Below are positions 4,421-24,300 of a stretch of DNA of 50,974 nt, one piece after another (within the stretch, counting starts at the first letter, position 1; each line of letters opens with the position of its first letter). Source of the stretch: Bilabrum cf. latius (taxonomy: Eukaryota). Below the pieces are notes generated by a model. That model saw only the letters and a program-made list of their open reading frames with translations. It was not told the DNA's origin and did no database searches. The translations under genes were made by a program, and so were the position numbers. The stretch is from positions 310,001-360,974 of the forward strand of contig CBCXTV010000001.1 of NCBI GenBank assembly GCA_965178125.1, written 5' to 3'.

Positions 4421-4725
4421 CACGGCGGGCGAGCCGTTTTTCAAAAGGAGCACGGGTCCTTCGGGACGCCATTTCACTTACGGCGGGCGAGCCGTTTTCC
4501 GAATGGTGCGGGGGTCCTACTGATGCACACGGCGATCGCTGGTTCACTCACGGCGGACACACGGCGGGCGAGCCGTTTTTCAAAAGGAGCACGGGTCCTT
4601 CGGGACGCCATTTCACTTACGGCGGGCGAGCCGTTTTCCGAATGGTGCGGGGGTCCTACTGATGCACACGGCGATCGCTGGTTCACTCACGGCGGGCGAG
4701 CCGTTTTCCGAATGGTGCGGAGTCC
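4421..4725. repeat. Array of five ACGGC-gggcga-GCCGT-tttt hairpin repeats
   Basis: Copies at 4422, 4480, 4561, 4619 and 4689 with spacers in A-B-A-B order. Confidence 0.85.
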
Positions 4726-5040
4726 TCCAGATGACCACGGTGATGGGTGGCAGCATGTCATAGGCGCGCCGTCGGAAGCTTCCCCTTCGAGTGCTGCCTA
4801 AAACTGAGAAACCTGGAGATCCTAGCATCGTATGGAGGCAAGAGGTAACACCTTGGGGTCCGTTCTCCGCTTCAATTCCTGTCCCAAATCCGATTCCCAT
4901 TTCGAGACCGAAAAAGGTGACCCGGAAAACGACGGTACTTATTTCTGAACCGTTTTCCGGACGCTTTCCGGGCCTCCCATGTGACCGCTTTTTGCGTACC
5001 GAAACACGTTCCGCGCGTGAGGAGCAGATGCGGGGATTTC

Positions 5041-5700
5041 GCCAAAAATGGCCGATCCGCACAAGGAATTTAAGTTGCGGCGACACAGCTCGGACCCCGG
5101 CTTTTTTTTGGCTGTTTCGGGGCCCCAAGAGGGCTCCCGGCCCCAAAAAGAGCGTTTTCGGGGGGCTCGGAAGGGGACCCCCCAGGATTTGGCCAAAAAT
5201 GGCCGATCCACACAAGGACTTTAAGTTGCGGCGACACAGTTCGGGCCCCGGTTTGTTTTTGCGGTTTGGGGGCCCCGAGAGGGCTCCCGGCCCCAAAAAG
5301 GGCAAAACGCGAGGTTGTGGTGGAAAAAATGGGCCCCAGGCAGCCCCCAAACGACGCAAAACGCCACGTTGTGGTGGATTTTAGAGCCCCTAAATCGCCC
5401 AAAAAAGACGCAAAACGCCACGTTGTGGTGGATTTTAGAGCCCCTAAATCGCCCCAAAGAGACGCAAAACGCCACGTTGTAGTGGATTTTAGAGCCCCTA
5501 AACCGCCCTAAAAAGACGCAAAACGCCACGTTGTGGTGTTTTTTTTTTTGAGCGTTTTGGGGGGGCCCGGAAGGGGACCCCCCCAGATTTGGCCCAAAAT
5601 GGCCGATCCACACAAGGAATTTAAGTTGCGGCGACACAGTTCGGGCCCCGGGGTTTGTTTTGCTGTTTGGGGGCCCCAAGAGGGCTCCCGGGAGGCCCTA
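5041..5700. repeat. Complex minisatellite: 54-bp units nested in a larger repeat
   Basis: gacgcaaaacgccacgttgt at 5353, 5407, 5461 and 5515; the aaaatggccgatcc...taagttgcggcgacacag block occurs three times. Confidence 0.9.
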
Positions 5701-8686
5701 GAGTGGCCCTTCTCCGCTTCAATTCCTGTCCCAAATCCGATTCCCATTTCGAGACCGAAAAAGGTGACCCGGAAAACGACGGTACTCTCCGTCACTCCAT
5801 CTGGCGGCGAAAATTGCCTCAGTTTCCGGTCCCCGATTCCGGGCCCAAGGACCCCCGAAATTCCCGATTCCGCGCAGTGCCGAAAGCTCGACATAAACCA
5901 CAAACACGACACACAACACAACACGATAGCGCCTCCCCACGCGCGGGATTGGGTCCTTCCGCTCGCTGCATGTGAGCTGCAGTGTGTTCTTGCCGGGAAT
6001 GTCACTGGAAGTCGCGCTGCAGTCTGCTCAGGGCGCCTTATGACCATGAAGGCGTCTCAGCACCCGCGACGGCAAGAGGGGGCACGCACGACGTTGCGAA
6101 GCACCCGCCCTGGGTGAAGAAACTGCGTATCCACAGGAGTCACGTTCAGTTGCGCGAGAATTGGAAAGGCGGGGTAACTGGTGCAGAGGAGCTTGTTCGC
6201 AGCGCGGCTTCCACCAGCGCCGCTGACGATAAGATGCATCGGTCTCGGTACATGAGTCGGCACGGTGTTGCGTGATTGACTTCACGATGCGGGAGTGTGC
6301 AGCCTTCCGCAGCGGGAGAATTGTATCTCCCCACGACCGCCGAAAAAAAAAAAAAAAAAGGCTATGCTGGACTCGTTCCAGGGAAGGCTATGCGATGAGT
6401 ATCTCTAGGCGCTTTCCGGAAGACCCACCCACTACACGCTGGTCAGCCCTCCCAAGCGGGAGTGAACCGCGGAGCCGCGGGCCCGTGAGCGCTGCTGCTA
6501 CGATCATTTCTGCCCGTTTGACTCTCGCCCACTCTTGCCGTGACCAAAGACGCGCAGATCCTTATGACGCATGACACCTCGTCGAGGTGTCGAGACTGCC
6601 TCACATTCCCGTTACGGAGACCCACAGCACTGCGACAACGAAATCGGTCACGAAGAGAGCAAGAGGCCGCGCACCTGAGCATCACAAAAACCCCGAGAGA
6701 CATAAACAACACCGTACCGTGAAGTCCCTGCGACGAGGGGATGCTAAGCGGCTCCCACGGCGGCTCCTCTGCGGGAGAAGCTGCCGCAGACCTCGAGATG
6801 GGATGCACATGATTGCGAAGATTGCGGAACTCGTCCGAAGCCGGTCGCACGAGGGTCACAGCGAATGGAGGCATATCTTTGAAATAGAGTCTGCGTGCAA
6901 AGCAGCATTCCAAACGATCGTCCGCATTCTTCCGAGCAAATCCTTGGGAGCACACATCCTGCGGACGACATCTCTTTTCTATCCACCCCAGCGTACTCCC
7001 CGCGCACACTTCTCGCGAATGATTGAGAATTCTGTGCGGCACATGTAATATCAGGCTACCATGATACGCGGAATGGCGTGCTATTGCTCGCACGTTCGTG
7101 CGCCCCCTTCCGAATGCGCTTACCACATCACTATGTTCGTCGGCAACCGTATACACCGTAGGGGTCTTCCCTCCGACACCAAGCGTACACGACTGGCCGT
7201 AATAGCGCAGCGTAGATGTTTCGGACGTCGCCCAGGACAAGTGTCGACGCCCGGTTCGTCACGATCACTACGTGTGCACTTCACTCACCGCCCTCCAGCC
7301 GCTAGACTTCTTTTGGAACGCGACATCCTACGACGCGCTATGACACGTAGCCGTAAACCGCAGACGGCCTCGCGTTCACTGCTTGCAGCGCAAGTGCGTG
7401 AACAAGAACCGCCCGCGTGGCACACCTTCGCAGGCGCGGAAGACAAAAAGTTCCTTCTAAGCTTGTATTCGGGTCCGAAAGCCAAATTCCACTTCGGGGT
7501 CGAGAAGGGCGACCCGGGAAATCACCGTACGCTCTGTGAATCCATTTCCCGGGGAAAGTCCCCGAGTTCCCGCTACCCGGTCCCAGGCCCAGCGACCCAG
7601 GAAAGTTCCCGTCCCCCCGCATGCGGAAACCTCCCACGAAGCACGCCCACCTCACGCTTCACACGCAAAAGTCCAGGAGTCAAATCCATTCCGGACCCAG
7701 CAGTTCACCCCCCGTGACGATTGGGAAAGGCTCTTGCACACACCTTCTCGTCCGAGCAGTCTATGGAGCACACGCCTGTCTTCGTTGCCTTTTCCGGCCA
7801 AAAATGCAGGGAGTTCGAAGGGGAAGTAGCAAACGCGGAAGACCGCTTTCGAAACGCAGGTGCTCAGGGAAAAACAACCAGAGCGTCCCTGATCCTCGGC
7901 AGAGCCGTCCAGGAGGGACGGGCACGGACGGGCATCGCAGATCTTGCAGCGCCACCATTCGCCGGGATGGGCGACCGGACGAGGGCGACCACAAGTACGT
8001 AGCGTGCGACGTCCGTCAGTCGCCATGTTGCGCTCATTCGCTTTCGCGGCACGACTTCCAGGGCCGGCCTTACTCACTCCTCGGAGTCCGCGTGTGGATT
8101 CTCCCCTGCGCACGATCTGCCGCTCTAGATGCTACACAAAGATCCCGCTCGGATGACCCCCTCTGTGCATTCTGCAAGATTTTACGCGCCTCCATTCAAT
8201 GCGCGAAGCATGCACCGCAGCAGTCTGAGTCCGGTGACCACCTTCAATAGCGTGGGACAAATTCCGTCCGCGATGTGCATTCGGGCATGCTCCCCTTTCC
8301 GAGTCTCTGTGACCCGTAGTGCGTCCGCGGCCAACGACTCAGGACTCCACGATGGTACGCACGAGTTGCATTCCTTGCACGAAGCGTGCGGAGAGAAAGC
8401 GATGCTCAGACATCGAGGCGCTTGGAGGGTCTGCACACGACATGCTTCGAGAGGCCATGCAAACATGCGAAACCAGAACTGAGGTTCCTCATCGTTCCTG
8501 CTGTCGAGCGCTCAATTGGGGCATCGGATCAGGACGAAGCTCGCGAAGAGAGGGCGCGGGTGTCCCCATCCAAAAATCCGCCGCCTTCAAGGCTCATGTT
8601 CCCGGATCCTGCATTCGCGAGTTTCGGGAGCAGAAGTGCAAGATCGCCGCTGGACACACAGCGCATGCCATTTCCCGTCTCTGGAG

Positions 8687-11248
8687 ATGTCGGGCTTCCA
8701 GGCGCAATTCGGACACCATCGCCAGGACCTCGGGAAGATGACATGTCTGCTGATCTGCAGGGAAGAGTCCCGCTTCGAGGAGTGGCGACAAAAAAAAGGG
8801 GCGCGAGAACTCCACGAGCACATGGGAGCGGTCCTTCGGCTCCCCAATCCAGTGTTTCCGCAGACCGACAGGGACCCAGATGGACGCGACATCGTCAAAG
8901 ACCAGGCCCTCTTGGATATCTTCTCCGGCAAGATAACGGACTGGAGCAAATACAATCCGGCCACTGTTGGGGCGATCCAATCCCATCGAAACGCATGGCT
9001 GTGGGCTGAGAACCACACGCCGACGGAATGGCTCATGGTTGTCGAAGATGATATCGAACCTCGCGAAGCATGCGTGGATCGGCTACTCGTAGTTCTTCAC
9101 GCCATCGCGAAAAACCCCAAGGTGACGCAGATGGCCATGTTAGCGGGGTCAGAAGCACCGAGAATGGTCACCCTCCAGCGCGAAAACTCCACCTCCATCC
9201 ACAATTGCGAGCGCCTCTTGGACGTGCGGACCTATCCGGCGCACTGGGTAGACAACACATTTGTGGTCCCCTACCACGTCGGCATGGGCCTAAAGTGGTA
9301 TCTCATCAGCCCGGAGGGGAGGAAGGCGCTCCTGAAGATGCGGATCCCGAACCGAAGCTTCGAACGCTGCGTCTGGCGCCGCCTCTTCGACACGTTCCAA
9401 GGGCCGGTATGGAAGTGGGGAGATTGCCTCCGCATGACATCTGTGCTGGCAGCCAGCCCGGTCCTCGCATCGACTCCCGAGAGCATGGACACGGAGTGGG
9501 GGGGCTCGGGACGACGAAGTGCGGATGCAGGGCACAGTATGAAACCGTACATAATGATCGACCCGAGTGACGACTGGACTCTTGGCGAGCGATTAAACAC
9601 ATTGTCCGTCGTGATGTCCGTGTGCGCGGCCCTGAGTTGGGGGGTTGTCCTCGTCTGGGAAAAAACAGAGCGCGTGCCCATCTCCTACGAAGACTTGTGC
9701 GGTGTTCACGAGCACGCCGGCGAAACCAACACGTTCGTCCACCTCCTCCAGGACAAACGCGGCGGGTCGTATTCGTACTTCCTGAGGTACGGAGACATCC
9801 GCATCCACGTGGTGCAGCCGATGATGTGCATCCCCACCCTCGACAGAATGCTCGACATGGTAGCCATGAAGAGGCCCAAGATGAACACCCTGCCTCCCTT
9901 GAAATGGCAGACCGCTCGATGGATCCAAGTCAAGCAGAAGTGGATCGATAAACTCCACACGGAGATGCCGGGGGCCGAGCTGCCCTCATGGCTGGAGTGG
10001 CCACCCTCAACCCACGCGCTTGTCCTCTGCGACGACAGGGACTTGGCGGCGCATTGCCTCGAGGGGAGATGCCAAGAGGAGCAGCAGGAGTGGATGAACG
10101 GCGGGAAGGACAACAGCATCCAGTACTACATCCTTGAGGCAAAGCAGGCGCTGCAGAACGAGTTGGAAGACATCCTAAAGGGGGACAGCAGCTCGCGCCT
10201 CGTCGTGATCCGCATGACAACCAAACCGCTGGGACAGGTCTGGGTGGACATGATGAAGCACCTCACGAAGCAGTTCAGGGAGCGCATCATAACGCCAACG
10301 TTCCTCCTCCCGAAAATGATCCCCAAAAGGAGGCACGACGAGAAGAACCCGAGTGATGATTGGATTACTTGGGGAGCATCCTTGGCGAAAACCGTGGGCC
10401 TCCTCACGCTCATACCTCCGATGCAAGTGCACTATCCCATCATGAGCTGGACCGTGGCCTGGAACCACTTCATGTTTAAGGGCAGGACTGCCACGGACAC
10501 CGTGATCCCAGACGTCATCCGAACTCTGTACGCTCCGCACAAGAGCAACAGGAAGCAGCTCCTCAAGAACGGCCCGCTGTGCCAGACGAGGCGCGCCGTG
10601 CTGGACTCGCCCGCACTGCGGGACATTGCGAACAACTACTCAAGGGCCAAGGACAAGACCTATAACCTCTTGAGTTATTCCAAATGGTTTGCCGAGGAAG
10701 CCATGTGGCACATGATCAAGTACGCGGAAAGCACGCAGTGCATCGTCGACCCGTTCGTGAGCCGCCAGTGCCAAAAGGTCTTCGAGCACATCCCCTCGGA
10801 CGACATCGGCCATGCGGACGCCCGGCTCCGGTACAACCTTCAGGATGCCGACGACCGAGGTTACCGCTTCAACGCGGGGCATCTCTACACCGCGGTGCAG
10901 GGCATCAAAACGGTGAACATCGCATACAACAAGTGGCTCACCGAGCAGGCACAGAGTCATTCCGAATGGAGCTGGGGCAAAACGTTCATCAAGCTTGTGA
11001 TCAACCAGTGGCGGCAGCAGCAGGGCAGTGAGCCGTATGACGTGGACGAGGAGGAGTACGTGAGCCTTCCGCGGACCTTCCACGGGAATTCGTTGAAGCT
11101 CGCGAGGAGCGTAAGCCACAAGGACACGAGATCCTGCTCCAGATCGTCCTCATCCTATTCCAGGTCGCCCTCCACCAACAGGACTGAGGCACAGCCTTCG
11201 AAGAGAGCGCGCCTGACCCCGGCACCCGGCGTAAAGCACGAGCCCTGA
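8687..11248 (+). CDS. Large protein with an N-terminal GT25-like glycosyltransferase domain
   Basis: GAIQSHRNAW...WLMVVEDDIE...WYLISPEGRKALL matches GT25 signatures (GCxxSHxxxW, hEDD, YhhSxxGAxxLL). ORF is open from 8516; first ATG is 8687. Confidence 0.7.
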   Translation: MSGFQAQFGHHRQDLGKMTCLLICREESRFEEWRQKKGARELHEHMGAVLRLPNPVFPQTDRDPDGRDIVKDQALLDIFSGKITDWSKYNPATVGAIQSHRNAWLWAENHTPTEWLMVVEDDIEPREACVDRLLVVLHAIAKNPKVTQMAMLAGSEAPRMVTLQRENSTSIHNCERLLDVRTYPAHWVDNTFVVPYHVGMGLKWYLISPEGRKALLKMRIPNRSFERCVWRRLFDTFQGPVWKWGDCLRMTSVLAASPVLASTPESMDTEWGGSGRRSADAGHSMKPYIMIDPSDDWTLGERLNTLSVVMSVCAALSWGVVLVWEKTERVPISYEDLCGVHEHAGETNTFVHLLQDKRGGSYSYFLRYGDIRIHVVQPMMCIPTLDRMLDMVAMKRPKMNTLPPLKWQTARWIQVKQKWIDKLHTEMPGAELPSWLEWPPSTHALVLCDDRDLAAHCLEGRCQEEQQEWMNGGKDNSIQYYILEAKQALQNELEDILKGDSSSRLVVIRMTTKPLGQVWVDMMKHLTKQFRERIITPTFLLPKMIPKRRHDEKNPSDDWITWGASLAKTVGLLTLIPPMQVHYPIMSWTVAWNHFMFKGRTATDTVIPDVIRTLYAPHKSNRKQLLKNGPLCQTRRAVLDSPALRDIANNYSRAKDKTYNLLSYSKWFAEEAMWHMIKYAESTQCIVDPFVSRQCQKVFEHIPSDDIGHADARLRYNLQDADDRGYRFNAGHLYTAVQGIKTVNIAYNKWLTEQAQSHSEWSWGKTFIKLVINQWRQQQGSEPYDVDEEEYVSLPRTFHGNSLKLARSVSHKDTRSCSRSSSSYSRSPSTNRTEAQPSKRARLTPAPGVKHEP

Positions 11249-12122
11249 CGACGAAATGCCGCGGAACAGCGCGTTGCGAGGAGACAAAGCTCCGCAGGCA
11301 ACAGCAGAAGGCCGCCGAGCGCCGGAGTTGGAGGGTCACATAGTTCCATCGGTCCCATTCTCTCCGGAAGTCGCATAGCACGTGGAGATCCGCATGCTCT
11401 CGGTGCATGAACGCTGGCAGCACGCAGTGCCAAAGTCGCAAAGCGCTTCAGAGTCACAAGTCCAGAAGTTCTTCTGCCAATGTGTGTCCTCTTCCCGCTC
11501 ATGTGTGCATCCTCGGAGGAAGTCTGGAGATGACAGGACCCAGCACGCACCACATCAGAAGTCCTTTTTTAAAGCGGCATCGTCAGACAAAAATCTGGAA
11601 CGCCCTTCCGCAAAAAAGAGTGCTGCCCACAGAAAAAAGGGAAACACCTGAGGCCCCAGAAGCCAAAGGGAGGACCGCGAAGGACGCAGTTTCGAGGTCA
11701 CACTTTCCGGGACCAGTTTTGAGCCCAAAAAGGGGTACACAAGAGGAAAACACGATGCGGGAGGCTTGAAATTGTCACCGAAAACGGGCCCAAAATTGGG
11801 ACCCCTTTTTCGCAAATTTCGCAGCATCCAGACGACCCAGAAAGGCTTTCCCAGGCGCCGCCTCGAAGCTCACCTTCTCGCATGCAACCATGACGCAGCC
11901 CCACCTCCTCATGCAGACGCGTCTGAGAGACCCCGCAGTGGAACTTCTCCCATTCTGCGCAGGAAGCACTTCAGTCTACAAGGACCCGCGCACTTCTTAC
12001 CGCACCACCTCCATGTGAAAGCACTTCTCGCGGAGTTTTTTTCGGGCCCAGGAATACAGCAACTGCCAGAAGCTTCGCACAGAAAAGCAGCCCACTCAGG
12101 AAGCAAACTCACTGCACACCCC

Positions 12123-12593
12123 ATGGCGAGCGACGCAGAACCGGAGGACGCAATGCGGCTCGACTCCCCTAGAGATGCGGATGCAGCGGCGCCACCCGAA
12201 GCGACGGAGGCAGGATCACAGAAACCAGATCATGCGCAGCAGTTCTTCGAGGAGCCCTGCCCGAAAGACGGACACATGGAAGCGCTAGAGAAGACCGCCA
12301 AGACGGACGAACCTGGCGACACACCCTTGTTCGTCGACAAGTGGACGGCAGCGATCACACGCCTTACCGAGGAGCGCAAGGCTCTCAAGCTCGAGCAGCG
12401 GGCTAAAACGAAGGCCATCCGCAAAACCATCCGGCAGAAAAGGCGCACCATGAAGAACGCCAAAAAACTCACAGACGACGAGCTCGCCCAAATCGTGCTA
12501 GACAGGAAGATCTTGCAGTTGGTGCAAAAAGAAGAGATCGCAGCACGCAGCTCCGCCAACTCCTCAACGAGCCAGGCGAAGTCGACCTTGTGA
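12123..12593 (+). CDS. Small protein with an acidic N-terminus and a basic coiled-coil C-terminus
   Basis: MASDAEPED...LTEERKALKLEQRAKTKAIRKTIRQKRRTMKNAKKLTDDELAQIVL. Protein-like composition. Start placed at an internal ATG of ORF 11766-12593. Confidence 0.6.
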   Translation: MASDAEPEDAMRLDSPRDADAAAPPEATEAGSQKPDHAQQFFEEPCPKDGHMEALEKTAKTDEPGDTPLFVDKWTAAITRLTEERKALKLEQRAKTKAIRKTIRQKRRTMKNAKKLTDDELAQIVLDRKILQLVQKEEIAARSSANSSTSQAKSTL

Positions 12594-13015
12594 GAAGCGC
12601 TTCCCGTGTTCAGAGAACCGAGGATTACAGATAGACCCCGCGTCACAGAAGCCATCGCAAGAGGGCAGAGCGTCAAGTACAGCGCAGTCTTGACGGACAC
12701 AGATAGCCCGAGCAGCACAAAGCAGCGGATGCGGCTGCCCAGCGGAGTCGCGCACTCGGACAGCATACACGGGACGTGCTGGCAGAAATCACTCAGTCCG
12801 CGAGCACCGTCGTCAAGAGCACGGGAGGGGCAGACTCGACATGCACAACTTTGAAAAACGGGAGGGGCACGAAAGGAAGACAAATTTGGCATTAATCCTT
12901 GATTACCCCCGCCCCCCCGTAGAATCAGAGCGAGGAGATATGCTCGGAAGGTCCGGGGGGCAGTCGCAGAAAAGTGCACGCGAAAATAAGAGGAAAGGAG
13001 ACCCCCCAAACCCAC

Positions 13016-13166
13016 GTAGTGCGATCCTGGGTGGTACCCTCTAAGGTACTAAGAATCCTTCCCCCGAAAATCGCACTACATCGGTCCCTGGCGTCGGGGA
13101 AAGCGGAAAAAAGGGGAGCACTACCGTGAACAAATCCTGCATTTTACAGGAAAATCGGAGCACTAC
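13016..13166. promoter_or_regulatory. Candidate rolling-circle origin: stem-loop plus GCACTAC iterons
   Basis: GTAGTGCGAT (13016-13025) and ATCGCACTAC (13070-13079) form a perfect inverted repeat enclosing GTACC-ctctaa-GGTAC. GCACTAC recurs at 13118 and 13160. Lies upstream of rep. Confidence 0.45.
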
Positions 13167-13216
13167 GTGTCAAAAACTGGGGGTTTTTGAGGTTTTTTTC
13201 CAGAAAAACGGCATTT

Positions 13217-13425
13217 GGGGCCAACTGTCGGTTGTGGCCATACGCGTTGTGGCGTCGAGTCCGCGATCTCGTTGATTATGGCTTGAAAAACTATGACGGA
13301 AGCCACTGAGGGTGGTAAGTACTTCCAAAGGTGGAATCATGTGTACATTGCTTGCTCGATTTCAGCCACGTGCGCAAAAAACGGCCTCGATTTCGGTGCT
13401 GTTTTCGCCCCCGAAAAGCGAGCAC
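13217..13425 (+). ncRNA. Putative structured RNA cassette present only in copy 1
   Basis: Nested helices with multiple G-U pairs plus a 3' hairpin. Replaces an unrelated 209-bp segment found in copy 2 (39042-39250). Confidence 0.5.
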
Positions 13426-13768
13426 GATGCCCTCGAACGTCGTGTCTCATGTGGTATTCGCCGGTTTCTATGTTCGAGAAGGCGGTCGGTCGGTCATCCT
13501 CTCTGGCAGGCTCCGAAGTGCGTTTGTGATCGTGCTAATTGCAACGCCATGCTTTCCTTCGTTGGCTTCGAGAATCCTTCCCTCGGAAGCGGTACTACCT
13601 CGCCCAGGGCGGCACGAGCTGCAGACTCAGCTGCCTCGGTGCTCATGTGTGTCCCGTGTCAGCAGTTTCGGTGTTACGAACAGCAAGGATTCTGGGCATT
13701 GCGTGTCGGAGGCAAGTGTTCTATCTTGAGGCATTCCGCGATTCGTCGAAGGATTATTTGCGCAAATA

Positions 13769-16054
13769 ATGTCGGCTCCGTTCAAGGGCGAAACGATGAG
13801 TTTGTCTGTTGCCGAGTCGCTGAAGTCCCGAGTCGCATCCTGCTCCTGGGATCCCGCGTGGGTTTCCGCGAGCTGCGTGCCGTGCGATGGCCTCCCCACA
13901 AGCCAGGAGTCAGAAGCGTCCACGACGGCGACCTCTGCTTTGTTAGGGGTGTCCGAGGCGTCCCCAACGTGCTCGTGTGGCCTCGGTGTCTCCAATTCGG
14001 TGGCTGCAGCGCGCGCGGCCGCTGTCCCGAGTTTTGGCTTTGACGATGCGGAGAACGACTTCGACGCCAGTCTCGACATGATTGAGGCCTCATGCGAGGT
14101 CGCATGCGAGGCAGAATGCGAGGGCGATCCGGGAGCCTGCTTGTTGTCCCACGGCAAGTCGAGCGGTCAGTGGCAGATCGGCGTAGTGGGTGAACGAGTC
14201 CTTTATGAGGGCCTCAGCGTTGAGGGCGACATTCCTGGCCGCGTTGCTGCCTCCGAAGCGCTCGCCGCGGGTGTCATCAATTTGGAACCCCCGTCAGAGG
14301 AAGTACTTTTGCCGGTGCAGCTTCTGCGGAGTAGTCAAGGTTACCGTGGGGTTCTGCCCATCGAGGATTCTGCGCCCGATGCGAGGGGGCGACCGCAGAT
14401 GCTCATGCTTCCCGATTTCGTGCCCCCCGTGAAGAGGCGGCGTCTTCGGCAGAAGTGCGACCCTGCTGAGGGCGATGCAGCACCGAGTCTTGCGGCTCAT
14501 CTCGGACCTCCGCCCGCGGCTCGTGCCGCGGCCGGAGCGTCTGGGCCGCAGCGCTCGACTGGAAGGCCTTCGACTCGTCCTATTGATAGTGTCATCTATC
14601 GTCTCCTGCGGGTTTTCCCTGACGATTTCAAGTTGGCGTTTCCGGCGTCGGTGTCACACCAGCGGAAGCGGTGCCTCATCAGGGAGGCGCTTCGCAATGT
14701 ACCCGGTGACCGCATGTGCATCTTGAAAGACTGGGCTGCGGGGGCGGAGGACACTCCTTGCCAGCTTCGTTTCGAGGAGCTCTTCCCGGAGCTTGCGCGG
14801 CAGCGGGACGAAGTTGTGAGGAATCCGGGATCGCATTCAGTGCCCGTGGGCGAGATTGTGCCTGCGTCCGACAAGAACACGAGGCGGGGAAGGGCCGTGA
14901 TGCTTACCTTTCACGGTCGCTGGGGTGTCGAAAAGGAGCCTGTGCGCGACATCATGTCGGCATCCGTGGCAAGGGGCGTCCTGAGGCGATTGGTTCTCGC
15001 GTCTCCGTTCTATGTGGAGCTTTGGGCCACCTTCAAGGCATGGGCGCAGGACATCGCGCGGCGGATGATGTGGCCTCAGCTGTCCATGAAAATGGAGCTC
15101 TCCCTGCACCGCAAGCACGCCGCAAACTTGGTGCACTTCCACGTATGCATGACGGATTCCGAGAAGTCGCATCGTTGTCGCGTGGCGGAGGATTTCATGT
15201 GGGCCGGCAGCAGGCCGAATGTCGTCTACGGCTCCGGGCGGTCAGCGAAAGCGCAGGAACGTGGCGCGTCGGAGTTACACTATTATTGTCAAGCTCCCAA
15301 AGTCGGTGCGCTGCTTTGCGCCACGAACTACCGAGCCGGACGCGATTTCGTCGTCAATGGTAAGTTCGTGCACGCGTTGTTCGCACGCTTCAAAATGGAT
15401 CCGGACGTCGCGAGAAGGGAACTCGTGGCGTATCGGTGTCGGGACGCCGAGAACTTAGTGCGCGCCATCGACTTCCACATACAGAATGCCGCGGAGAGGA
15501 GAGAGGTGTGCGCGCAGGCCGCGGTGCACGTAGTGACGAAGCTCCGCCCCTTTAAGGTGGTGCCCGAAGTCGAGAAGTGGCGCGAGAGCTATCGTCAGGA
15601 GTGGTTCGCGCACATGCGCTTCAAGTTCCTTGTCTTGGTGGGGGACTCCCGGTTCGGGAAGACAGTGTACGCGCGGAATCTCTTCGGGAGCGAAAGGACT
15701 CTTGTTGTGAACTGTCAGGGCAGTGTGGAACCTCCGCTCCGTGGCTTCGATCGAAGTCGGCATGTGGCCATTGTGTTCGACGAGGCAAATGCCCTGTGGG
15801 TCGTCAACAACAAACAGGTCTTTCAGGCTGGCCTTGACCCCTCCCTGCTCGGCCAGAGCAAGACGAACAGCCTCGCATACTCTGTGTGGCTCCACGGTAT
15901 CGCCCTGATCATCTGCACGAATTCGTGGGGCTCTGACGTGACGGAGTCGGTGGACCGCGAGTGGCTTGACAACAACTGTACGAAAGTGGAGGTGAAAGAT
16001 CGGCTCTACTTCGACGAGGACTTGTTGTCTCTCACGGATGTGCAGAAGAGCTGA
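13769..16054 (+). CDS. rep: CRESS-type replication initiator: HUH endonuclease + SF3 helicase, with a long low-complexity N-terminal extension
   Basis: Motifs in canonical order: motif I VMLTF (~14897), motif II VHFHV (~15131), motif III HYYCQAPK (~15278), Walker A GDSRFGKT (~15641), Walker B IVFDE, motif C IICTN. Confidence 0.9.
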   Translation: MSAPFKGETMSLSVAESLKSRVASCSWDPAWVSASCVPCDGLPTSQESEASTTATSALLGVSEASPTCSCGLGVSNSVAAARAAAVPSFGFDDAENDFDASLDMIEASCEVACEAECEGDPGACLLSHGKSSGQWQIGVVGERVLYEGLSVEGDIPGRVAASEALAAGVINLEPPSEEVLLPVQLLRSSQGYRGVLPIEDSAPDARGRPQMLMLPDFVPPVKRRRLRQKCDPAEGDAAPSLAAHLGPPPAARAAAGASGPQRSTGRPSTRPIDSVIYRLLRVFPDDFKLAFPASVSHQRKRCLIREALRNVPGDRMCILKDWAAGAEDTPCQLRFEELFPELARQRDEVVRNPGSHSVPVGEIVPASDKNTRRGRAVMLTFHGRWGVEKEPVRDIMSASVARGVLRRLVLASPFYVELWATFKAWAQDIARRMMWPQLSMKMELSLHRKHAANLVHFHVCMTDSEKSHRCRVAEDFMWAGSRPNVVYGSGRSAKAQERGASELHYYCQAPKVGALLCATNYRAGRDFVVNGKFVHALFARFKMDPDVARRELVAYRCRDAENLVRAIDFHIQNAAERREVCAQAAVHVVTKLRPFKVVPEVEKWRESYRQEWFAHMRFKFLVLVGDSRFGKTVYARNLFGSERTLVVNCQGSVEPPLRGFDRSRHVAIVFDEANALWVVNNKQVFQAGLDPSLLGQSKTNSLAYSVWLHGIALIICTNSWGSDVTESVDREWLDNNCTKVEVKDRLYFDEDLLSLTDVQKS

Positions 16055-16458
16055 CGCCGGCCGCTGAGGTTTTCAGTCCGGTTCACACGAGCGCCGGAGC
16101 CGCAGCGGCAGCCGCTTCGGTGCTCCTGAAGGTCTAATGTCCTCAATGCGTTTCGTGTGCAAAAAGGATGTGATTTCTACATGGGGGCATTCCGCAAGTT
16201 TCATGTGGTCCGTCGCGTTCGTCCGGGGGAGTGCTTGCCTAGTATTGGGAGCTTGCCTGACACACACACACGTGGCACCCAGCCTGATGGGTTGCAAGTG
16301 TGTGTGTGTCTCCGCAGTGCCGCGGTTGGGACCCGGCGGGTCGTTTGCTTTTACGTCGCCGCGTCGCGCGCCGACGAGACATTTCTTGGTCTCAGAAGCC
16401 TCTGCTTCCGGTAGGCGCGCCGTGTACGCTCGCGGGCCGAAGGTGGGTGCGTTGCTTG

Positions 16459-17151
16459 ATGGCCTACGTCGGTATCGCCGATGCACCGTATGTGCCCGTG
16501 GTTGCCGCGTCGACCTCCGAGCACGCCCCGGAGGGCGAGGTGGAGATGATGCTTGCGCCTCTTGCCGGAGATGTCGGTTTCAAGCGGCCTCGCGTGTTTC
16601 CTCCCGGTTCGCGACTTCTTCCTAAGTCGCCGGCCCATCCGGCGGTGCTCATAACAGCGCTCGGCAGTGAGGCACCCCAGGACACACAGTGCGTCGTTTG
16701 GTCGGACTCTAAGGCTTTCGACCTCGCGGAGTTTGTATGCTCTTCCTGCGGCTGCAATCGTGTCATGGCGGACCTGAATCATCGTATGCGTGATCGTCTC
16801 GTACGTCGCGTGCAGCGCACGCTTTATGCCGATGATTCTCCGTGCGGCAGGGGTGCGATTTCGTGTCGTGCTTGTCGCGAGAAGGCGCGCGACGCGGCGC
16901 CGAAGACGTCGATTATGAACGCGGCGAACAAGAAGAAGATCTCGGGAACTCTTCGCATGCAGTTGGATCTCATTGTAGAGACCGGGGAGCGGAAGGGTCA
17001 GCGTTGTACTGCGGAGAAAATTCTGACATTGGGAACGATGAAGCAGCACAGGGTTTTCGAGAGGGACCTTTACGATGAGGCATGGCGCGGGCTTGTTCGT
17101 CTGTCTGGACGCGAGGCTTGGAGCGATGACGACTCGTGGTCTCCGCGTTGA
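16459..17151 (+). CDS. Hypothetical CxxC...CxxC zinc-ribbon protein
   Basis: MAYVGIAD...CSSCGCNRVMADLN...ISCRAC; directly downstream of rep on the same strand. Confidence 0.55.
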   Translation: MAYVGIADAPYVPVVAASTSEHAPEGEVEMMLAPLAGDVGFKRPRVFPPGSRLLPKSPAHPAVLITALGSEAPQDTQCVVWSDSKAFDLAEFVCSSCGCNRVMADLNHRMRDRLVRRVQRTLYADDSPCGRGAISCRACREKARDAAPKTSIMNAANKKKISGTLRMQLDLIVETGERKGQRCTAEKILTLGTMKQHRVFERDLYDEAWRGLVRLSGREAWSDDDSWSPR

Positions 17152-17358
17152 GCTTGCGTGACGGTTTTCCCTCTTAACCTGGCCTCTTGCGTGGCGCTGC
17201 TTCCGCGTGTGGCCTGAGCGTGCGACCTGAGCGTTCGGCCTGCTGTCGCGTGTGACCTGAGCGAACGGGCGCTCGACAGTATCCCGCGTTTGTTGCTTCT
17301 GGGGTTCAAGAAACTTGTACTTTTTGGGCTGTACGGTGGTCAGTGGTGCACGGTTCGT

Positions 17359-17500
17359 TCGCAGCCTCCGCGTTGTTGGAAAGCTATGGTGGAGCATGGT
17401 TCTTTTCGCAGCCTCCGCGTTGTGATCAAGCTACGGTGGAGCATGGTTCGTGAGCATGGTTCTTTTCGCAGCCTCCGCGTTGTTGACACGTGAAAGCTAC
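17359..17500. repeat. Short tandem repeat (3 x tcgcagcctccgcgttgt with gagcatggttc linkers); also at ~43184-43325
   Basis: Copies at 17359, 17406 and 17466. Confidence 0.8.
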
Positions 17501-18270
17501 GCGAACGTGACCACACAATAGGCCATACCCCAGGTGAAATCCGGACTCGGACATCCAGACGAAACGGCATCATGCACACTGTTGAACACACAAATGACAC
17601 TGAGCTCCACCGTAACGTAACTTTCCATCACCACCTGGTTTATTTTCTCCGCGATGGCAGCTTGGCGGTGACGCTGTGTCTTCGGGCATGAAGGGGCAAA
17701 TCTTTGGTTTTTTGGGCCCTGTTTCGGTCACCGAAAAGTCGTGTGATTTCTGGCGCGCAGGAGGAGTGACGCAAGGTATTTCTGAACCGTTTTCCGGACG
17801 CTTTCCGGGCCTCCCATGTGACCGCTTTTTGCGTACCGAAACACGTTCCGCGCGTGAGGAGCAGATGCGGATCTCCGCGGGGTCCTAGTTGTGTCCTTTT
17901 TCGGGGGACGAAATCGGGCGCACTTGTCGTGCCGATTCGTGGTCGTCTCTGAGACCGGCTGCGAGTCGGGAAAGGTGCCCGGGAGATGCTCGTGTCCTTG
18001 GCTTCGTATTTCTCCGCGTATTCTTCAAACGCGGGCGCACGTCTCCTACCGATTCGTGGTCGGTTTCCGAGGCCGATCGCGAGTCGGGAAATGCGCCCGC
18101 GATGCGCTCTCGATCTCGGAAAGGGCGGGAGTCCGTTCTTGCATTCGGAATGGGCGGGGAGTTGCTTTTCCTGGGAGCATGTGCGAGATTCCTTCTCCGC
18201 GGGTCCTCTTTCGGCTTCGGCAGTCAGCAGCGCACTCTGCGGGAACGGCATTCTCCGAGTCTCTTTGCCG

Positions 18271-19278
18271 ATGATGTCTGAGGAGAAACCGTCCGAGAGC
18301 ATTGCTGTTTCCTTGGGAGACGGCCGCAATCTTCGTGGGCGTCGAGGCGCCGGTGATATGGGAAACGAGGGCGGCATGTTGGCGCGCGAGGTCGACGCCC
18401 CGGCGGAGCACGCCGGCGCGGCGGCAAGCGTCGATGATTCGGGCGGCCCCCACATCGAGAGCGGCGGCGCGGAGGCGGCGTCCACGGGGATGCTCGGAGA
18501 GGAGAGCGGCAAGGCAGCGCCGAAGGAGGACGCCGAAGACGACGGCGGCAAGAAGACGGAGGAGGAGGATGCTCGCGGCGGTGGACGTGCTGTGGTGCCC
18601 GGAGGTAATGACGACGTATGGACCGACGCAGCAGCTTGGAAGGCGGGTGGCGGCGTGGCAGCCGGGGCGGTCTCTGGCGCTGATAGCTGGGTTCTATGGG
18701 GGACCCCTGCGAAGTCGTCATGGGGGGAGACGTACGTGCCGCGGCAGGTCGCGCCGGAGCCGGCGGAGGAGGCGACATGGACTTGCAACGCGTGCCAGTG
18801 CTGCAAGCCCCGGTCGGCGTACTTCAAGAAGTGGAAGGACTGGATCCAACCAGTTTGCCGGGTGTGTTGCGACAAGTTCGACAACGCGACGCCGTGGTGG
18901 GTGTGGTGCAAGAACTGCAAAAACGAGTATCCGGCGTACCGATTTCCCCAGATCCGCCGGAAGAAGGAGAACCTGCGCTATTTCTTCCCTGAGGACTGGT
19001 GCGCGAAGTGCCTGGTTGCGCGTGGCTGGAGTCTCCATGATGTCCGTTCCTCTGCGGGTGAAGCGAAGCGTTGGGTGCCAAAAGCTGGCGCGAATACCGG
19101 TGACGGCGACAACGACGCTCGTGCTCCCGCACGCGACGAGCTTCCTGCAGGAGGCGCCGCCTCCTGCAGCAACGCCGTGCGTCAGAGTTCTTCGCGTGAC
19201 GAGGCCTTGGATGACATCAAGCGGGCCATGGAGCTTCTCCAGAATGCGGAAAGGTTCCTCCTCACGATGCCAGCGTGA
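18271..19278 (+). CDS. Hypothetical protein with an acidic disordered N-terminus and two zinc-ribbon units
   Basis: CNAC...CRVC and CKNC...CAKC pairs. Start placed at MMSEEKP inside ORF 17986-19278. Confidence 0.65.
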   Translation: MMSEEKPSESIAVSLGDGRNLRGRRGAGDMGNEGGMLAREVDAPAEHAGAAASVDDSGGPHIESGGAEAASTGMLGEESGKAAPKEDAEDDGGKKTEEEDARGGGRAVVPGGNDDVWTDAAAWKAGGGVAAGAVSGADSWVLWGTPAKSSWGETYVPRQVAPEPAEEATWTCNACQCCKPRSAYFKKWKDWIQPVCRVCCDKFDNATPWWVWCKNCKNEYPAYRFPQIRRKKENLRYFFPEDWCAKCLVARGWSLHDVRSSAGEAKRWVPKAGANTGDGDNDARAPARDELPAGGAASCSNAVRQSSSRDEALDDIKRAMELLQNAERFLLTMPA

Positions 19279-19487
19279 CGCGGGAGCTTCCCGAATGGGT
19301 CCGTCGTACTGTGAGGGCGCTCCGGAAGGAAGAGCGCGAGTGAGTCATCCTTGCGCCGAGGTGAGCGCGACGTCGGAGGAGCACGGTCGTTTGATTGGGA
19401 ACGATATGGTCGGCAGAGTGTGAAAATCCGAGTTTCTCGTGCAGGATTGGGCAGCTCTCTAGATATCTTGCCTGGGAAGGGTGTGAT

Positions 19488-20460
19488 GCGGTGGGAGCGC
19501 TTCCGCCTCACGTGGCAGACGTCCACACTTCCTGGTTCCCCGGCAGGCTGTTTGGCGAGACGGAGTGGCAAAGCATCCGCCTGCTGATTCCTACTTTGTT
19601 ACCTCGATTGTGAGCTCGGAGCTTGGGGCGGAGGATTCTGCGGGCAGCTCATGTGTGCCTAGAGTGTCATCCCGCGACCCTCTGACTTCTGTTCGTGGCT
19701 TTACCTCTTCGCGCAGGAAGATTCCTCATGAGGCAAGCCCGGTCCGAACTCGCGTGGGATGCCGTGCGCTGGTGCGGCTTCCACTCATCCCCGGGGTGGG
19801 GAGCGCTGGGTAAAGGATCGTCTGTCCCTGCAAGTTTCGATTCGGCGAGGTGCGGCAGCATGACGCGGACCGAGGTGAAGTCCTTTGTCCGCGATAGGTC
19901 GCCGCGTCGCGCGGTGGCGACCCCACAGCGCCCAAATCCCATTCCGGAGAGGGGGTGTGATGCAGTGGGAGCCCTTCCGCCTCACGTGACAGACGTTCAC
20001 ACTTCCTGGTTCCCATAAGGTCTTCAGCACAGCGCATGCGAGGCAGGCTGTTCGGCGAGACGTAGTGGCATCGCCCCCGCCTGCTCATTCCTACTTTGTT
20101 ACCTCGATTGTCAGCTTGGGGCTCGGGGGCGGCGGATTCAGCGGGCAGCTCATGTATGCTGGAGTGTCATCCCGCGACCTCTGACTTCTGTCCGTGGCTT
20201 TACCTCTTCGCGCAGGAAGATTCCTCATGAGGCAAGCCCGGTGCGAACTCCTGTGGGATGCCGTGCGCTGGTTCGGATTCCACTCATGCCCGATGTGGGG
20301 AGCGCTAGGGTAAAGGATCGTCTGTCCCTGCAAGTTTCGATTCGGCTCGAGTCAATGTGAGGAAGGAGAGGTGCGGCAGCATGACGCGGAACGAGGTGAC
20401 GTCCTTTGTCCGCGATAGGTCGCCGCGTCGCGCGGTGGCGACCCCGCAGCGCCCAAACCC
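19488..20460 (+). repeat. Diverged tandem duplication of ~470-500 bp; also at ~45313-46285
   Basis: gggtgtgatgcRgtgggagc...cagcgcccaaa occurs twice. The second copy supplies the start of ORF 20381. Confidence 0.85.
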
Positions 20461-20905
20461 CGCCCCGCCAGCGAGTCCTCACTCGACAGCGGTGTCGAAC
20501 CTGCAGCAGCGCTTCGAGAACATGCAGCAGCGTGCGGAAAGCTTGAGCGCTCAGCTGGAGTACGCCCAAAGTGTGATCAGGCTGCTCTCAGGCCTGTTGC
20601 GCGATGAGGCTCCTCGGTTCCATGCAGACTTTGATCCCGTGATTCGGCGTGCGATGTCTGGCGCAAGCGGCTCCGTTGCGGGTAGGTCTTTCCGTCTTGT
20701 GGACGGAGGCGTCATCCACGGACCTGACACAGCAGTCGCTGCTCCTCCGCGTCGTCTCATCGTTGAGGTGCGTACGGACTGGGAGATGACCGAGACTGCC
20801 TCAACTGTGCTGGATTCCTCAGGATCAGACGACATGGGTTCCGAGGACTCGCCGCCGCCGACCGTCGTCCTCCCCAGCGGCGCGGCGGGCGCCGGCGGTG
20901 CCTAG
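20381..20905 (+). CDS. Hypothetical coiled-coil protein
   Basis: MTRNEVTSFVRDRSPRR...VSNLQQRFENMQQRAESLSAQLEYAQSVIRLL heptad pattern; acidic tail. Confidence 0.55.
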   Translation: MTRNEVTSFVRDRSPRRAVATPQRPNPAPPASPHSTAVSNLQQRFENMQQRAESLSAQLEYAQSVIRLLSGLLRDEAPRFHADFDPVIRRAMSGASGSVAGRSFRLVDGGVIHGPDTAVAAPPRRLIVEVRTDWEMTETASTVLDSSGSDDMGSEDSPPPTVVLPSGAAGAGGA

Positions 20906-21479
20906 TCCTCGGCAGCTCCTGCATCGGAGCCTCCTGTCGAGATTCGATCGCGCAACGTCGTTCCTTACATTGCTTGCCGTCGCATGTGCCGGGCGGTGGT
21001 GGGTGTGCGTGTTCGCCGAAAGTTCCCGGCCTCGTCTTCCTCAGGAGAGCTCCTCGACCCGAAATTGGCAGCTCAGCGCTGCCGTGGCCGATACAGTACC
21101 CGTGCACGGCCAGTTGGCAGCTACGCGCTGCCGTTGCCAATGTCGTCCGCACGAGAGCAGAGTGGCAGCTCAGCGCAGGCGAGAAACCGCGCTCGCAATG
21201 CTGCGAGGTGTATTCAATGCTGTGCACGTGTCTATCCCTCTCCCTGGTTTTGTCTCGCTTGCGCCAGTGTGACCGCAGCAGAGCGGGTGCTTCCCGTGCG
21301 TCTTCAGCTTTGAGCACTCCTCCAGCGACAGGAAGGCATTCGCTTGCTCTCGCTCCCCGCCTGCGTCCTATCCCTCCCGGGTATCTTCAGAGGCCACAGG
21401 CAGTGCGAAGCTTGGCAGCGGGTCCGTCCGCGTCGTTTCGGCTGTGAGCGATCTTCTGCCCGGTTCCTCACGCGTCATA

Positions 21480-23081
21480 ATGTCCTCTGCTTCGGTGCCG
21501 GATCAGCTCGCACGGATCAGTAAGGAGCTGAAGTGTCTCAGAGACGCGAGACAACGGGCGCGCAATGGGCTGCGCCATCCGTGGTTGCGCGCCATGGAGG
21601 CACAGGTCGCTGAGGTTATTCGTCATCACCCCGGAGGTGGCGAGGCAGCTCTTCGAACCTATGTCTCTCGTCAGTTGCAGAGTCGACAGGTTTCCACGCG
21701 GACGGCTTCGCAGGAGGAGTTTCAAAGGCAGGTCGATGAGGAGGTCGCGCTCACCATGAGGCGCCCAGCTGAGGCGTGGCAGCGAAATCCTCTTCGCTCA
21801 TGTCATCGAGAGTCCGTGGCACGCGCAGAGGCCTTTCTCGCCGAGGCTTCTGTCGTTGCTTGGATCGACCATGTGAACGAGCAGCGTGGGTGTGCTCCAA
21901 CTGGGAACATGGTTTTCGCCATGCTTGCGAGGATGGGCGTTCGCGCGGGGAAGGACTCGGCTCGACGGCAGTGGCTCCTGCGCTTCCGTCGTCGTTGGCG
22001 GCTTCGGCATGGCCGATTGAAGAAGCAGCCCCCGGTAACACTCGATTACGTCAGACTCGCGTGTCGTGTCTTCTATCAGTGGATTGAATTCGCAGAAGCG
22101 CGAGTGCCCCCCAACCGCCGCCTCGTCTTTGTGAACTTCGATGAGTCCAGCGTGCCCTTTGCCTTTCCGGGAATGCGCGGGTACATCGCACCGAGGTCAG
22201 GAACGGAGCCCGCTTCGCTTGGTTCGCGCACGGAGCGCCTCGCCTCGAATAGCAATCGAGGATCGTACACCTTTCTGGGTTTTATTAGCGACTGCCCGGA
22301 AATCCAGCGACGACTCCCGCGTATACTCATCGGGAAGCACACGCGGCTGAGCAAGCGCTTGATGCGTGGGGCGCCGAACCAAATGGTGGACGGAATGGAA
22401 GTCTGGGCCCGAGAGAGCTCGTGGGTGACGCAGTCCCTCATGTTCGACATTCTGCGTCGGCTTTTCGCTTCTTGGATGGACATTCAGCATGAGATCTATC
22501 CAATAGTGATACTTGACTGCGCGCCCCAACACATTTCCACTGAGATTGTGAACTTCGCACACGGCCTTGGCATGGATCTCGTGTTTATTCCTGGTCGACT
22601 CACCTTCTTGCTTCAGCCGTTGGACGTTCTCGTCTTTCAGCTTCTTAAGCGCGACCTTCGGGAGACGTGGATGCAGGAGCGCTCGCGTCATGAAGCGGGT
22701 CATGTCGATGTCTCTTGCCATCTCAGGGTTGTCGCTGAGTGCACGAAGAGAGTGCTCTCGTCTGGCTCGTGGCAAGGCGCTTTCGATATGACAGGCATTA
22801 CCAGCGGCAGGCGCCGCTTGCATTCGACCCTACGGCGCTTGTTTGAGTGTGACATGGAGGACATCTCCAGCGATGCTCCGTCTGTCGACCAGCTCCGCTT
22901 CATCAGCAGTCCGCAGCAGCCTCTCCCGCACGATGCGCTCATCAACAGGGCCCCAGTCGCGTCCGGACACGGGGTCGACGGAGGCGTCCACGGTGGTAAC
23001 GCTCGCCGCGTGCCTCGTGGCCGCAGACTAAACGGATGGACCCCCCGCGATCGCGCTCACCCCTCGGCGGCCATGCCGTGA
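21480..23081 (+). CDS. pogo-family (DDE_1) transposase, DD35D
   Basis: VNFDES / ILDCAPQH / LQPLDV triad with 35 residues between the 2nd and 3rd D. WLLRFRRRW resembles the end of a CENP-B-type HTH. First ATG is 21480; the ORF is open from 21444. Confidence 0.85.
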   Translation: MSSASVPDQLARISKELKCLRDARQRARNGLRHPWLRAMEAQVAEVIRHHPGGGEAALRTYVSRQLQSRQVSTRTASQEEFQRQVDEEVALTMRRPAEAWQRNPLRSCHRESVARAEAFLAEASVVAWIDHVNEQRGCAPTGNMVFAMLARMGVRAGKDSARRQWLLRFRRRWRLRHGRLKKQPPVTLDYVRLACRVFYQWIEFAEARVPPNRRLVFVNFDESSVPFAFPGMRGYIAPRSGTEPASLGSRTERLASNSNRGSYTFLGFISDCPEIQRRLPRILIGKHTRLSKRLMRGAPNQMVDGMEVWARESSWVTQSLMFDILRRLFASWMDIQHEIYPIVILDCAPQHISTEIVNFAHGLGMDLVFIPGRLTFLLQPLDVLVFQLLKRDLRETWMQERSRHEAGHVDVSCHLRVVAECTKRVLSSGSWQGAFDMTGITSGRRRLHSTLRRLFECDMEDISSDAPSVDQLRFISSPQQPLPHDALINRAPVASGHGVDGGVHGGNARRVPRGRRLNGWTPRDRAHPSAAMP

Positions 23082-24100
23082 CCTCGACCACGACCATGTC
23101 AGGGGCGAACGCGACTTCGTCAACCTCGAGCACGACCATCCCAGCGGCGAAGGCGGCTTCCTCGATGGGATCCCTGACCCCGACGAAGCTTCCCCGACCT
23201 CGGCCACGTGAACCTGCAGGCGCATTCTTGCCCGATGTGCCCGCGCAGGTGGCGGCCTGCACGGCGTGGGCGCCACCGTTTCGTCGACCAGACAGCTCAG
23301 CCACTCCGGCGACGCGCGAGGCGGCAACGTCCACGTGCATCAATCCGTGGACCGCTCTCTCCTGGTATCCGACACCACCGCAGCCGACGGACCCCCCTTC
23401 CGACAGGCCTCGCGAGGTACCGAACCGGAGCTCCCGGCAGCAGCGCAGGCGTCATGCTTGGGGCGGCACGTGGGTGTTCGACGACGCCATTACGCTCAGC
23501 GATTGCGGGTCGAGGGTGCAGATCGACGCGCCGCAGTCGAAGCTCTTGGCGATGGTCGTGCCCCGGAAGTCGGGCCAGTGGATTCCTCGTAGGCTGCGCT
23601 CGCGTACGATCTGGTATTTGGCTGGGGAGCAGTCGGCCGTGATCACCAACCTCAAGTGCCAGGCCTGCAGTCGGGTCAAGCACGCGGACAGCTTCAACCC
23701 GAAGAGCTTGCGTCGGGCTCAGTACTCGTTGCTGCATTCCCTGTGGCCCGGCTACATACGACGTACCGAGCGGTCTATTTGGTGCACGCAGTGTGCGGTG
23801 GAGGACCAGTTGATGCAGGGCAACTTTCCGGACGGCTACTGTTTCCGGATCCGCGCCACACTCGAAATTTGCCATCAAGATCGCGTCGCGGCCAAGCTGT
23901 TTGCAGTGCACGACAGTAACGCTCTCTTCGAGCAGATCCCGCTGAGCTCCCGTGCGGCCATGGACGTGGCGGAGCAGTTGCGCCGATACTGGCAGGATGC
24001 CGTGTCCTCAGACGGCCAGAGCAACATCTTCCACAGCGACCACGTTTCGACAGACGACGACTCTGAGTTCGCACCGGGCGGACCGGAGAGCGTGCCGTGA
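23036..24100 (+). CDS. Hypothetical protein with a Pro/Ser/Thr-rich N-terminus and a zinc ribbon
   Basis: CQACSRVKHADSFNPKSL...IWCTQC; overlaps the 3' end of the transposase ORF by 46 nt. Confidence 0.6.
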   Translation: MDPPRSRSPLGGHAVTSTTTMSGANATSSTSSTTIPAAKAASSMGSLTPTKLPRPRPREPAGAFLPDVPAQVAACTAWAPPFRRPDSSATPATREAATSTCINPWTALSWYPTPPQPTDPPSDRPREVPNRSSRQQRRRHAWGGTWVFDDAITLSDCGSRVQIDAPQSKLLAMVVPRKSGQWIPRRLRSRTIWYLAGEQSAVITNLKCQACSRVKHADSFNPKSLRRAQYSLLHSLWPGYIRRTERSIWCTQCAVEDQLMQGNFPDGYCFRIRATLEICHQDRVAAKLFAVHDSNALFEQIPLSSRAAMDVAEQLRRYWQDAVSSDGQSNIFHSDHVSTDDDSEFAPGGPESVP

Positions 24101-24300
24101 GGGACCGCAGCGACAGTAGCGTCGCTTAGGTGAGGAGCGGGTGCCAATGCTCTTTTGAAAATGGTGTGTCGTACGTACGGCAGGAGCCGTCGGTGGGAGC
24201 GGGGCGGATCCTGCGGGAAGTCGTGGAGACTGAGGGCAGAGACTCTCGGGTCGGTCAGGGTCTCATGTAACGTGCTGTTCACCGCAGAGGTATGTGCGGA

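Follow-up and report, generated by a model that had tools for sequence, protein, structure and literature searches.

Origins of replication in Rep-encoding single-stranded DNA (ssDNA) viruses are described, in passages of PMC3187698, as recombination hot-spots; the same source describes concatemers that arise through copy-choice strand switches and origin-bearing common regions that get replaced. The locus analyzed here, which lies in a window of 50,974 nt (the window being the whole stretch of DNA that was analyzed), resembles origin-proximal recombination in geminiviruses, circoviruses and nanoviruses in that iteron-like repeats and an origin-like hairpin adjoin the event, which lies upstream of a rep gene encoding an HUH endonuclease and an SF3 helicase. 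It also resembles recombination in Rep-encoding ssDNA viruses in that the molecule is seen as a concatemer, for which copy-choice switching has been proposed (PMC3187698). In contrast, the known exchanges of common regions bring in a cognate origin via flanking homology, while the incoming block here carries no repeat and no origin hairpin and lacks flanking homology. At 25.7 kb the element is also several times as large as a typical genome among these Rep-encoding circular ssDNA viruses.

Two other kinds of system are close enough to be compared. Templated insertions made by MMBIR/FoSTeS or by polymerase-theta end joining do not preserve length. The event described here is like them in that sequence from another place fills a deletion and both joins show microhomology of 2-3 nt, but in the assembled record it preserves length exactly. 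Contigs made of multimers or concatenated variants of small circular replicons arise in long-read or mixed-strain assemblies, and the record is like these in holding about 1.98 units with few differing sites, mostly in homopolymer lengths. Such multimers explain the two copies; they do not explain an unrelated, length-matched block of 209 nt. In its workings the event is comparable to recombination beside the origins of Rep-encoding replicons and to the templated insertions made at repaired breaks; as a feature of the record it is real, and it is of a known kind.

Two copies of a unit and a length-matched block

The window (1-50974) comprises about 1.98 head-to-tail copies of a unit of 25.6-25.8 kb with 60% G+C. 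Positions 1-5150 align with 25583-30732 with a single mismatch, positions 5150-13216 align with 30978-39041 over 8071 columns with 2 mismatches and 5 gap openings, and positions 13426-25149 align with 39251-50974 over 11,724 nt with one mismatch. Left and right of 13217-13425 alike, the offset from copy to copy is 25825, and the two blocks enclosed by these alignments, 209 nt each, are unrelated. The features of this region are as follows.

13217-13425, no strand assigned: the patch in copy 1, judged from public runs to be natural sequence of another locus
39042-39250, no strand assigned: the native block of copy 2, with a tandem pair of GAGCACTAC
13116-13124 and 13158-13166 (span 13116-13166), + strand: the GAGCACTAC repeats kept in copy 1 (9-mer match)
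38940 and 38982, + strand: the same two GAGCACTAC repeats in copy 2
39066-39074 and 39076-39084, + strand: the extra tandem GAGCACTAC pair within the native copy-2 block
13016-13079, no strand assigned: hairpin module with a perfect 10-bp stem, GTAGTGCGAT/ATCGCACTAC; ssDNA z -3.88
24422-24485, no strand assigned: duplicate of the hairpin module; ssDNA z -3.58
38840-38903 and 50247-50310, no strand assigned: the hairpin module in the second unit

The initial annotation had reported these block coordinates, the constant offset and the lack of relationship between the blocks, and all three proved exact, both in the alignments on either side and in the comparison of the blocks themselves. In the same register the blocks are 24.4% identical. 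Their global alignment scores were -26 (forward) and -35 (reverse-complement), compared to a mean of -23.7 (sd 6.5) for 300 shuffles, and their local scores were 12 (forward) and 14 (reverse-complement), compared to a shuffle mean of 11.0 and a maximum of 18. Scores within the shuffle range in both orientations rule out an inversion, a shuffle or a diverged homologue. The base composition (A46 C50 G61 T52 in the copy-1 block, A33 C52 G61 T63 in the copy-2 block) bears out the count of 46 vs 33 A on which the annotation had likewise argued against inversion and shuffling. An invertible segment or shufflon was rejected on the differing composition together with the reverse-complement scores, and insertion of a MITE or IS was rejected since no inverted repeat pairs the block ends, 209 nt were replaced and none added, and the natural flanks extend past both ends of the patch. 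No frame is open across 13217-13425. BLASTN of the larger region 12600-16100 against plasmids gave no match, and an exact search with 31 nt taken at the invariant patch end gave nothing in viral, metagenome and genome contig collections.

The patch aside, the differences between the two copies are 2 substitutions, a single tandem-repeat count and six changes in base-run length, five of them in homopolymers of at least 6 and the other a paired shift (A2CA3/A3CA2). In copy 2 the tandem array, whose periods are 54 and 397 nt, is 246 nt longer (30732-30978 vs 5150), a difference in copy number between units. The run changes lie at 5177 (C6/C7), 5539 (T11/T10), 6343 (A17/A11), 12911 (C7/C9), 13131 (A2CA3/A3CA2) and 13192 (T7/T8); every small indel between the copies is a run-length change of this sort, resembling long-read consensus noise or slippage, and at 13131 and 13192 the public contigs show both run-length states. 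Under a uniform rate the small differences seemed clustered on the left side of the patch (P = 4e-5), an effect that was gone after correction for homopolymer density (P = 0.13). In another public assembly an identical Rep and an identical transposase occur together on one contig of 25,927 bp, which is compatible with a circular monomer of about the size of the unit.

The window contains 6 occurrences of the GAGCACTAC repeat where 0.17 would be expected, a count reached by none of 100 shuffles; all are on the + strand and before rep. There are two in copy 1 and four in copy 2, and the patch contains none. The proposal that the copy-2 version continues the local iterons was borne out by the two further GAGCACTAC at 39066 and 39076, and the slot does lie between a candidate origin and rep, with the hairpin and repeats on one side and a genuine rep on the other. 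The patch costs copy 1 two of its four Rep-proximal repeats and adds no repeat, open frame or unusual hairpin. The hairpin module, which ends 137 nt left of the patch, is present twice per unit within a 134-nt repeat of 91% identity, and its inverted stem arms contain GCACTAC. This module at 13016-13079 is a better origin candidate than the patch and may be the true origin. The nonanucleotide motif of CRESS-type origins is of the TATTAC type; no such motif was found in the unit, and the hairpin module is also without the canonical nonanucleotide. The patch was rejected as a CRESS-type virion-strand origin, having neither a nonanucleotide stem-loop nor GAGCACTAC.

Folding of the patch as RNA and as DNA

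The initial annotation had read the patch as a foreign structured ncRNA, or as a module like a single-strand origin, from nested helices followed by a separate hairpin ending exactly at the right junction. As drawn, the structure is sound: all 53 of the 53 listed pairs are standard, lie where they were placed and can form, and the hairpin is present.

13396-13425, + strand: terminal hairpin of the patch, -9.1 kcal/mol, as described but unremarkable

The reading that the patch is a long structured + strand ncRNA or a single-strand origin can draw on these pairs and on a minimum free energy (MFE) that is lower on the + strand (-66.1 kcal/mol) than on the - strand (-56.8). However, the proposed structure has an energy of -49.6 kcal/mol, which is 16.5 kcal/mol weaker than the MFE, and the MFE itself is that of ordinary sequence. 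Folded as RNA, the + strand of the patch gave z -0.18 against dinucleotide shuffles (mean -65.35, sd 4.25), with 87 of the 200 shuffles equal or better, and the - strand gave z -0.28, with 70 of 200 equal or better. Folded as DNA, the + strand gave z -1.21 (21 of 200 shuffles equal or better) and the - strand z -0.96 (29 of 200). The single-strand origin of rolling-circle plasmids was rejected as a model on these two DNA values, with no extensive ssDNA structure on either strand. Moreover, 73% of the 209-nt segments of the unit match or beat the fold of the patch, making it a below-average folder in the element; the terminal hairpin is matched or beaten by 11.5% of the 8599 30-nt segments of the unit, and in a scan of intergenic stretches the best hairpins in the patch were 7-pair stems with one mismatch.

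Sequence families and natural variation gave the same answer. No Rfam family matched anywhere in the window at gathering score, and in lax mode the sole match in 13100-13550 was ST7-AS2_2, at 14.8 bits vs a gathering score of 45 (E 0.46). BLASTN of the 209 nt against plasmids, phages and E. coli genomes gave no match. The public contigs hold 19 natural variant positions in the patch, 7 of them within the proposed helices; six of these break a pair, one turns G-U into G-C, and none is accompanied by a change of the partner, a weak test in that phase is known for one X4 contig only. The patch is neither an RNA gene nor a folding module. Since its fold is no better than that of shuffles, the RNA call is refuted on the terms that the annotation had itself set, and with z values close to zero on both strands, no Rfam family and helix variants that break pairs in 6 of 7 cases without compensation, we regard a structured ncRNA or single-strand origin as extremely improbable. 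In itself the finding is of small consequence, beyond striking a false candidate from the possible new structured RNAs.

Source of the patch and how it may have arisen

Public sequencing runs were searched with 12700-13950. Of 24 runs listed, 15 hold part of this stretch and 10 hold at least half of its words (best share 0.83), the holders coming from 11 studies. Contigs of four runs from three studies, designated X1, X2, X4 and X7, were aligned to 12700-13950. Donor contigs match the window over 13214-13427 and part from it beyond these positions. Loose ends at 13214 show the patch behind a left flank other than the window's in X1 (6 contigs), X2 (4) and X4 (1); a second left variant has its loose ends at 13222, in one contig each of X1 and X4. 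A different right flank, with loose ends at 13427, was found in X1 (6 contigs), X4 (2) and X7 (2). With up to 3 mismatches allowed, the donor flanks, left and right, are absent from the window. In X4, the full patch depth of 27.8 is made up of two contigs of 266 nt, one with a depth of 12.7 and 1 difference and the other with 15.1 and 16 differences; both have other flanks, and the depth of the element's flank is 151 (contig depths are sums over contigs and were used only for the X4 accounting). These alignments show the patch to be a piece cut from a longer natural sequence, whose locus is a different one and is found together with the element in public samples.

The right flank of the window was found joined to the copy-2 block instead. 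Loose ends before 13426 reproduce the last 30 nt of that block (39221-39250) exactly in X4, where the loose end has 210 letters, and in X7, where it has 71; in X2 (5 contigs) they read a close variant of the block end. The join of the copy-2 block to the window's right flank is thus present in 3 of the 4 runs examined, from 3 studies. By this join and by its repeats the copy-2 block is the native one, its arrangement being found elsewhere; to the initial annotation it had already looked native, from the repeats that continue into it. The wider claim made there, that a foreign structured module had replaced native sequence, divides: the patch is foreign by its other flanks in public contigs, but it folds as shuffles do, and the structured ncRNA or single-strand origin falls away. 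The copy-1 junctions were crossed by none of the 32 contig pieces listed (5130 more exist) under a criterion of 31 letters on each side, and contigs drop rare variants. Since the window differs from the majority letter in all four runs at 13032 and 13676, none of the four is clearly its source; with no crossing among the listed pieces this is not proof of absence, and the copy-1 join is unconfirmed outside the record. An ORF crossing the right junction gave no match in public assemblies; junction-crossing ORFs are not on record there, and such ORFs may never have been called. One copy in the record is chimeric, and this is relevant to the annotation of the element's origin region.

At both edges of the patch the window and the donor contigs share a few nucleotides.

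13214-13216, no strand assigned: left junction, TTT present in the donor contigs as in the left flank of the window, a 3-nt microhomology
13426-13427, no strand assigned: right junction, GA present in the donor contigs as in the right flank of the window, a 2-nt microhomology

TTT and GA at the joins are the signature of microhomology-guided template switching, be it in a cell or in an amplification reaction. We tentatively favor a physical recombinant molecule in which the patch came from two template switches at these short microhomologies, an account that we hold to be quite possible while stopping just short of calling it probable. The switches, at TTT on the left and at GA on the right, would have taken place during rolling-circle or repair synthesis, and the net event would be a deletion with a templated insertion beside the origin. 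The patched copy, with two of its four Rep-proximal repeats lost and no recognizable gain, would most likely be neutral or defective, a variant that travels in a multimer or within a mixed population. Homologous or in-register exchange between diverged regions was rejected, since the immediate donor flanks do not align in register with those of the window (3/22 on the right and 10/30 on the left, counted by eye). If the join is biological, Rep-encoding replicons would gain one more example of recombination beside the origin, here in a variant lacking half of its Rep-proximal repeats. Two independent switches, however, would not be expected to exchange 209 nt for exactly 209 nt; the equal length would have to be a coincidence, of about one in a few hundred (an estimate, not computed), and the absence of the copy-1 junctions from the 32 public contig pieces also tells against this account. 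The initial annotation had itself allowed for an artificial or assembly-level substitution on account of the length match. Exact length and a constant offset would be expected by design if, after assembly, 209 letters had been exchanged in silico by coordinate for 209 from the same data set; the block is also an arbitrary piece of a longer sequence whose natural flanks run on at both sides, and it has no end features of its own. A blind exchange, on the other hand, would match the neighboring 3 nt at the left edge and 2 nt at the right edge about once in 1000 times with equal base frequencies (somewhat oftener in a T-rich context), and would not need a donor from the same biological samples as the element, and we consider such an exchange distinctly unlikely. 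By rough arithmetic the coincidence in length and the coincidence in microhomology are both about one in several hundred to a thousand, and with sizes so similar neither settles the origin of the patch.

The microhomology at both joins suits template switching by a polymerase in vitro equally well, and the patch could have been put into copy 1 by a technical step of library making or assembly and not in a cell, whether by template switching in whole-genome or rolling-circle amplification, by a chimeric read in a low-coverage consensus or by a wrong path in the assembly graph. The record is almost a dimer whose copies otherwise differ mainly in run lengths, a pattern typical of unpolished long-read consensus, and the copy-1 junctions are in no listed public contig while the copy-2 right junction is in 3 of the 4 runs. 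Against this, no step in an assembler or polisher is known to us by which 209 unrelated bases would be exchanged in register, graph paths require k-mer overlaps far exceeding 3 and 2 nt, ligation chimeras link the ends of fragments and do not make internal patches, and the small differences are not clustered near the patch once homopolymers are allowed for. We find a technical chimera rather unlikely. A functional exchange of an origin module, by which copy 1 would have taken a control segment from a sibling replicon and altered Rep specificity or rep expression, would suit the position of the slot, between an origin-like hairpin with repeats and rep, and the co-occurrence of patch and element in all 4 runs examined, at about a tenth of the element's depth or more. 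The replacement of common regions among begomovirus and nanovirus components offers it a model, documented in passages of PMC3187698. The patch itself speaks against it: there is no GAGCACTAC in it, none of its hairpins surpasses what 11% of random segments attain, it has no significant similarity to the element, its sole 13-nt likeness to the repeat context, at the patch end, is at chance level by our estimate, and the donor flanks are unlike those of the element. We judge this exchange highly improbable. The patch could also be a real and recurrent variant, by which a giant 25.7-kb eukaryote Rep-encoding episome or virus swaps the segment from its origin repeats to rep with sequence of a companion replicon or of the host through a length-preserving template switch. 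If so, an iteron-depleted copy would persist only in a heterodimer or beside a helper copy, and we find such a variant very unlikely.

The Rep protein and its carrier

The carrier is more interesting than the patch: a 25.7-kb unit that encodes a pogo-like transposase and a CRESS-like Rep, the latter belonging to a family that numbers at least 1312 proteins and has no Pfam coverage.

13769-16054, + strand: rep ORF, 761 aa, HUH endonuclease and SF3 helicase by conservation and predicted structure
39594-41879: second copy of rep

An exhaustive protein search found at least 1312 homologues of Rep at E <=0.001, with a best identity of 44%; a word-indexed protein search missed Rep even though the exact protein was in the collection. 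In an alignment of 43 sequences (the query and 42 of the 150 listed homologues), no variation is seen at H456, H458, Y506, K511, G630, E672 and N718, and conservation reaches at least 90% at K631, T632 and D671. Rep thus carries the HUH motif, the catalytic Tyr motif and the SF3 Walker A, Walker B and motif C, together with a matching fold. The AlphaFold model has a confident core at about 370-750, with pLDDT mostly above 90. Compared to solved structures, the model matched AAV2 Rep68 (E 4.2e-7), the Rep of a Vientovirus (a redondovirus; E 2.7e-6) and B19 NS1, and among predicted viral proteins it matched the Reps of CRESS-DNA viruses, from E 7.9e-13. Rep itself matched no Pfam family at E <=0.1 (the Viral_Rep, Gemini_AL1 and RNA_helicase models among those searched), and 1 of the 43 family members matched Gemini_AL1_M (E 0.0012). 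The family was not reached by a sequence search of the PDB, and Rep-based locus searches in viral contigs and metagenome contigs found no relative. On this conservation and the predicted fold, the neighboring rep is a real gene and its protein is CRESS-like, and we leave it outside any named family.

The 370 N-terminal residues of Rep are predicted to be disordered and include a KRRRL stretch, which we take to resemble a nuclear localization signal. Most of the ten Rep relatives that were looked up lie on contigs of 2.5-10 kb, against which the 25.7-kb carrier is unusually large. The ORF at 21444-23081 (and at 47269-48906) encodes a transposase domain of the DDE_1 (pogo/Tigger) type (E 2.2e-11), a family that is mainly eukaryotic. 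A Rep relative with 43% identity and a transposase relative with 50% are both given 14,535 bp as their longest contig, which suggests that the pairing of Rep and transposase is conserved in a related element. Pfam gave no match for 10 of the 11 next-longest frames of the unit. Internal duplications of 140-670 nt with 87-99% identity run throughout the unit, some of them within long ORFs; they include those at 1655-3030, 3028-3687/18611-19277, 3724-4232/8890-9399 and 19542-20461.
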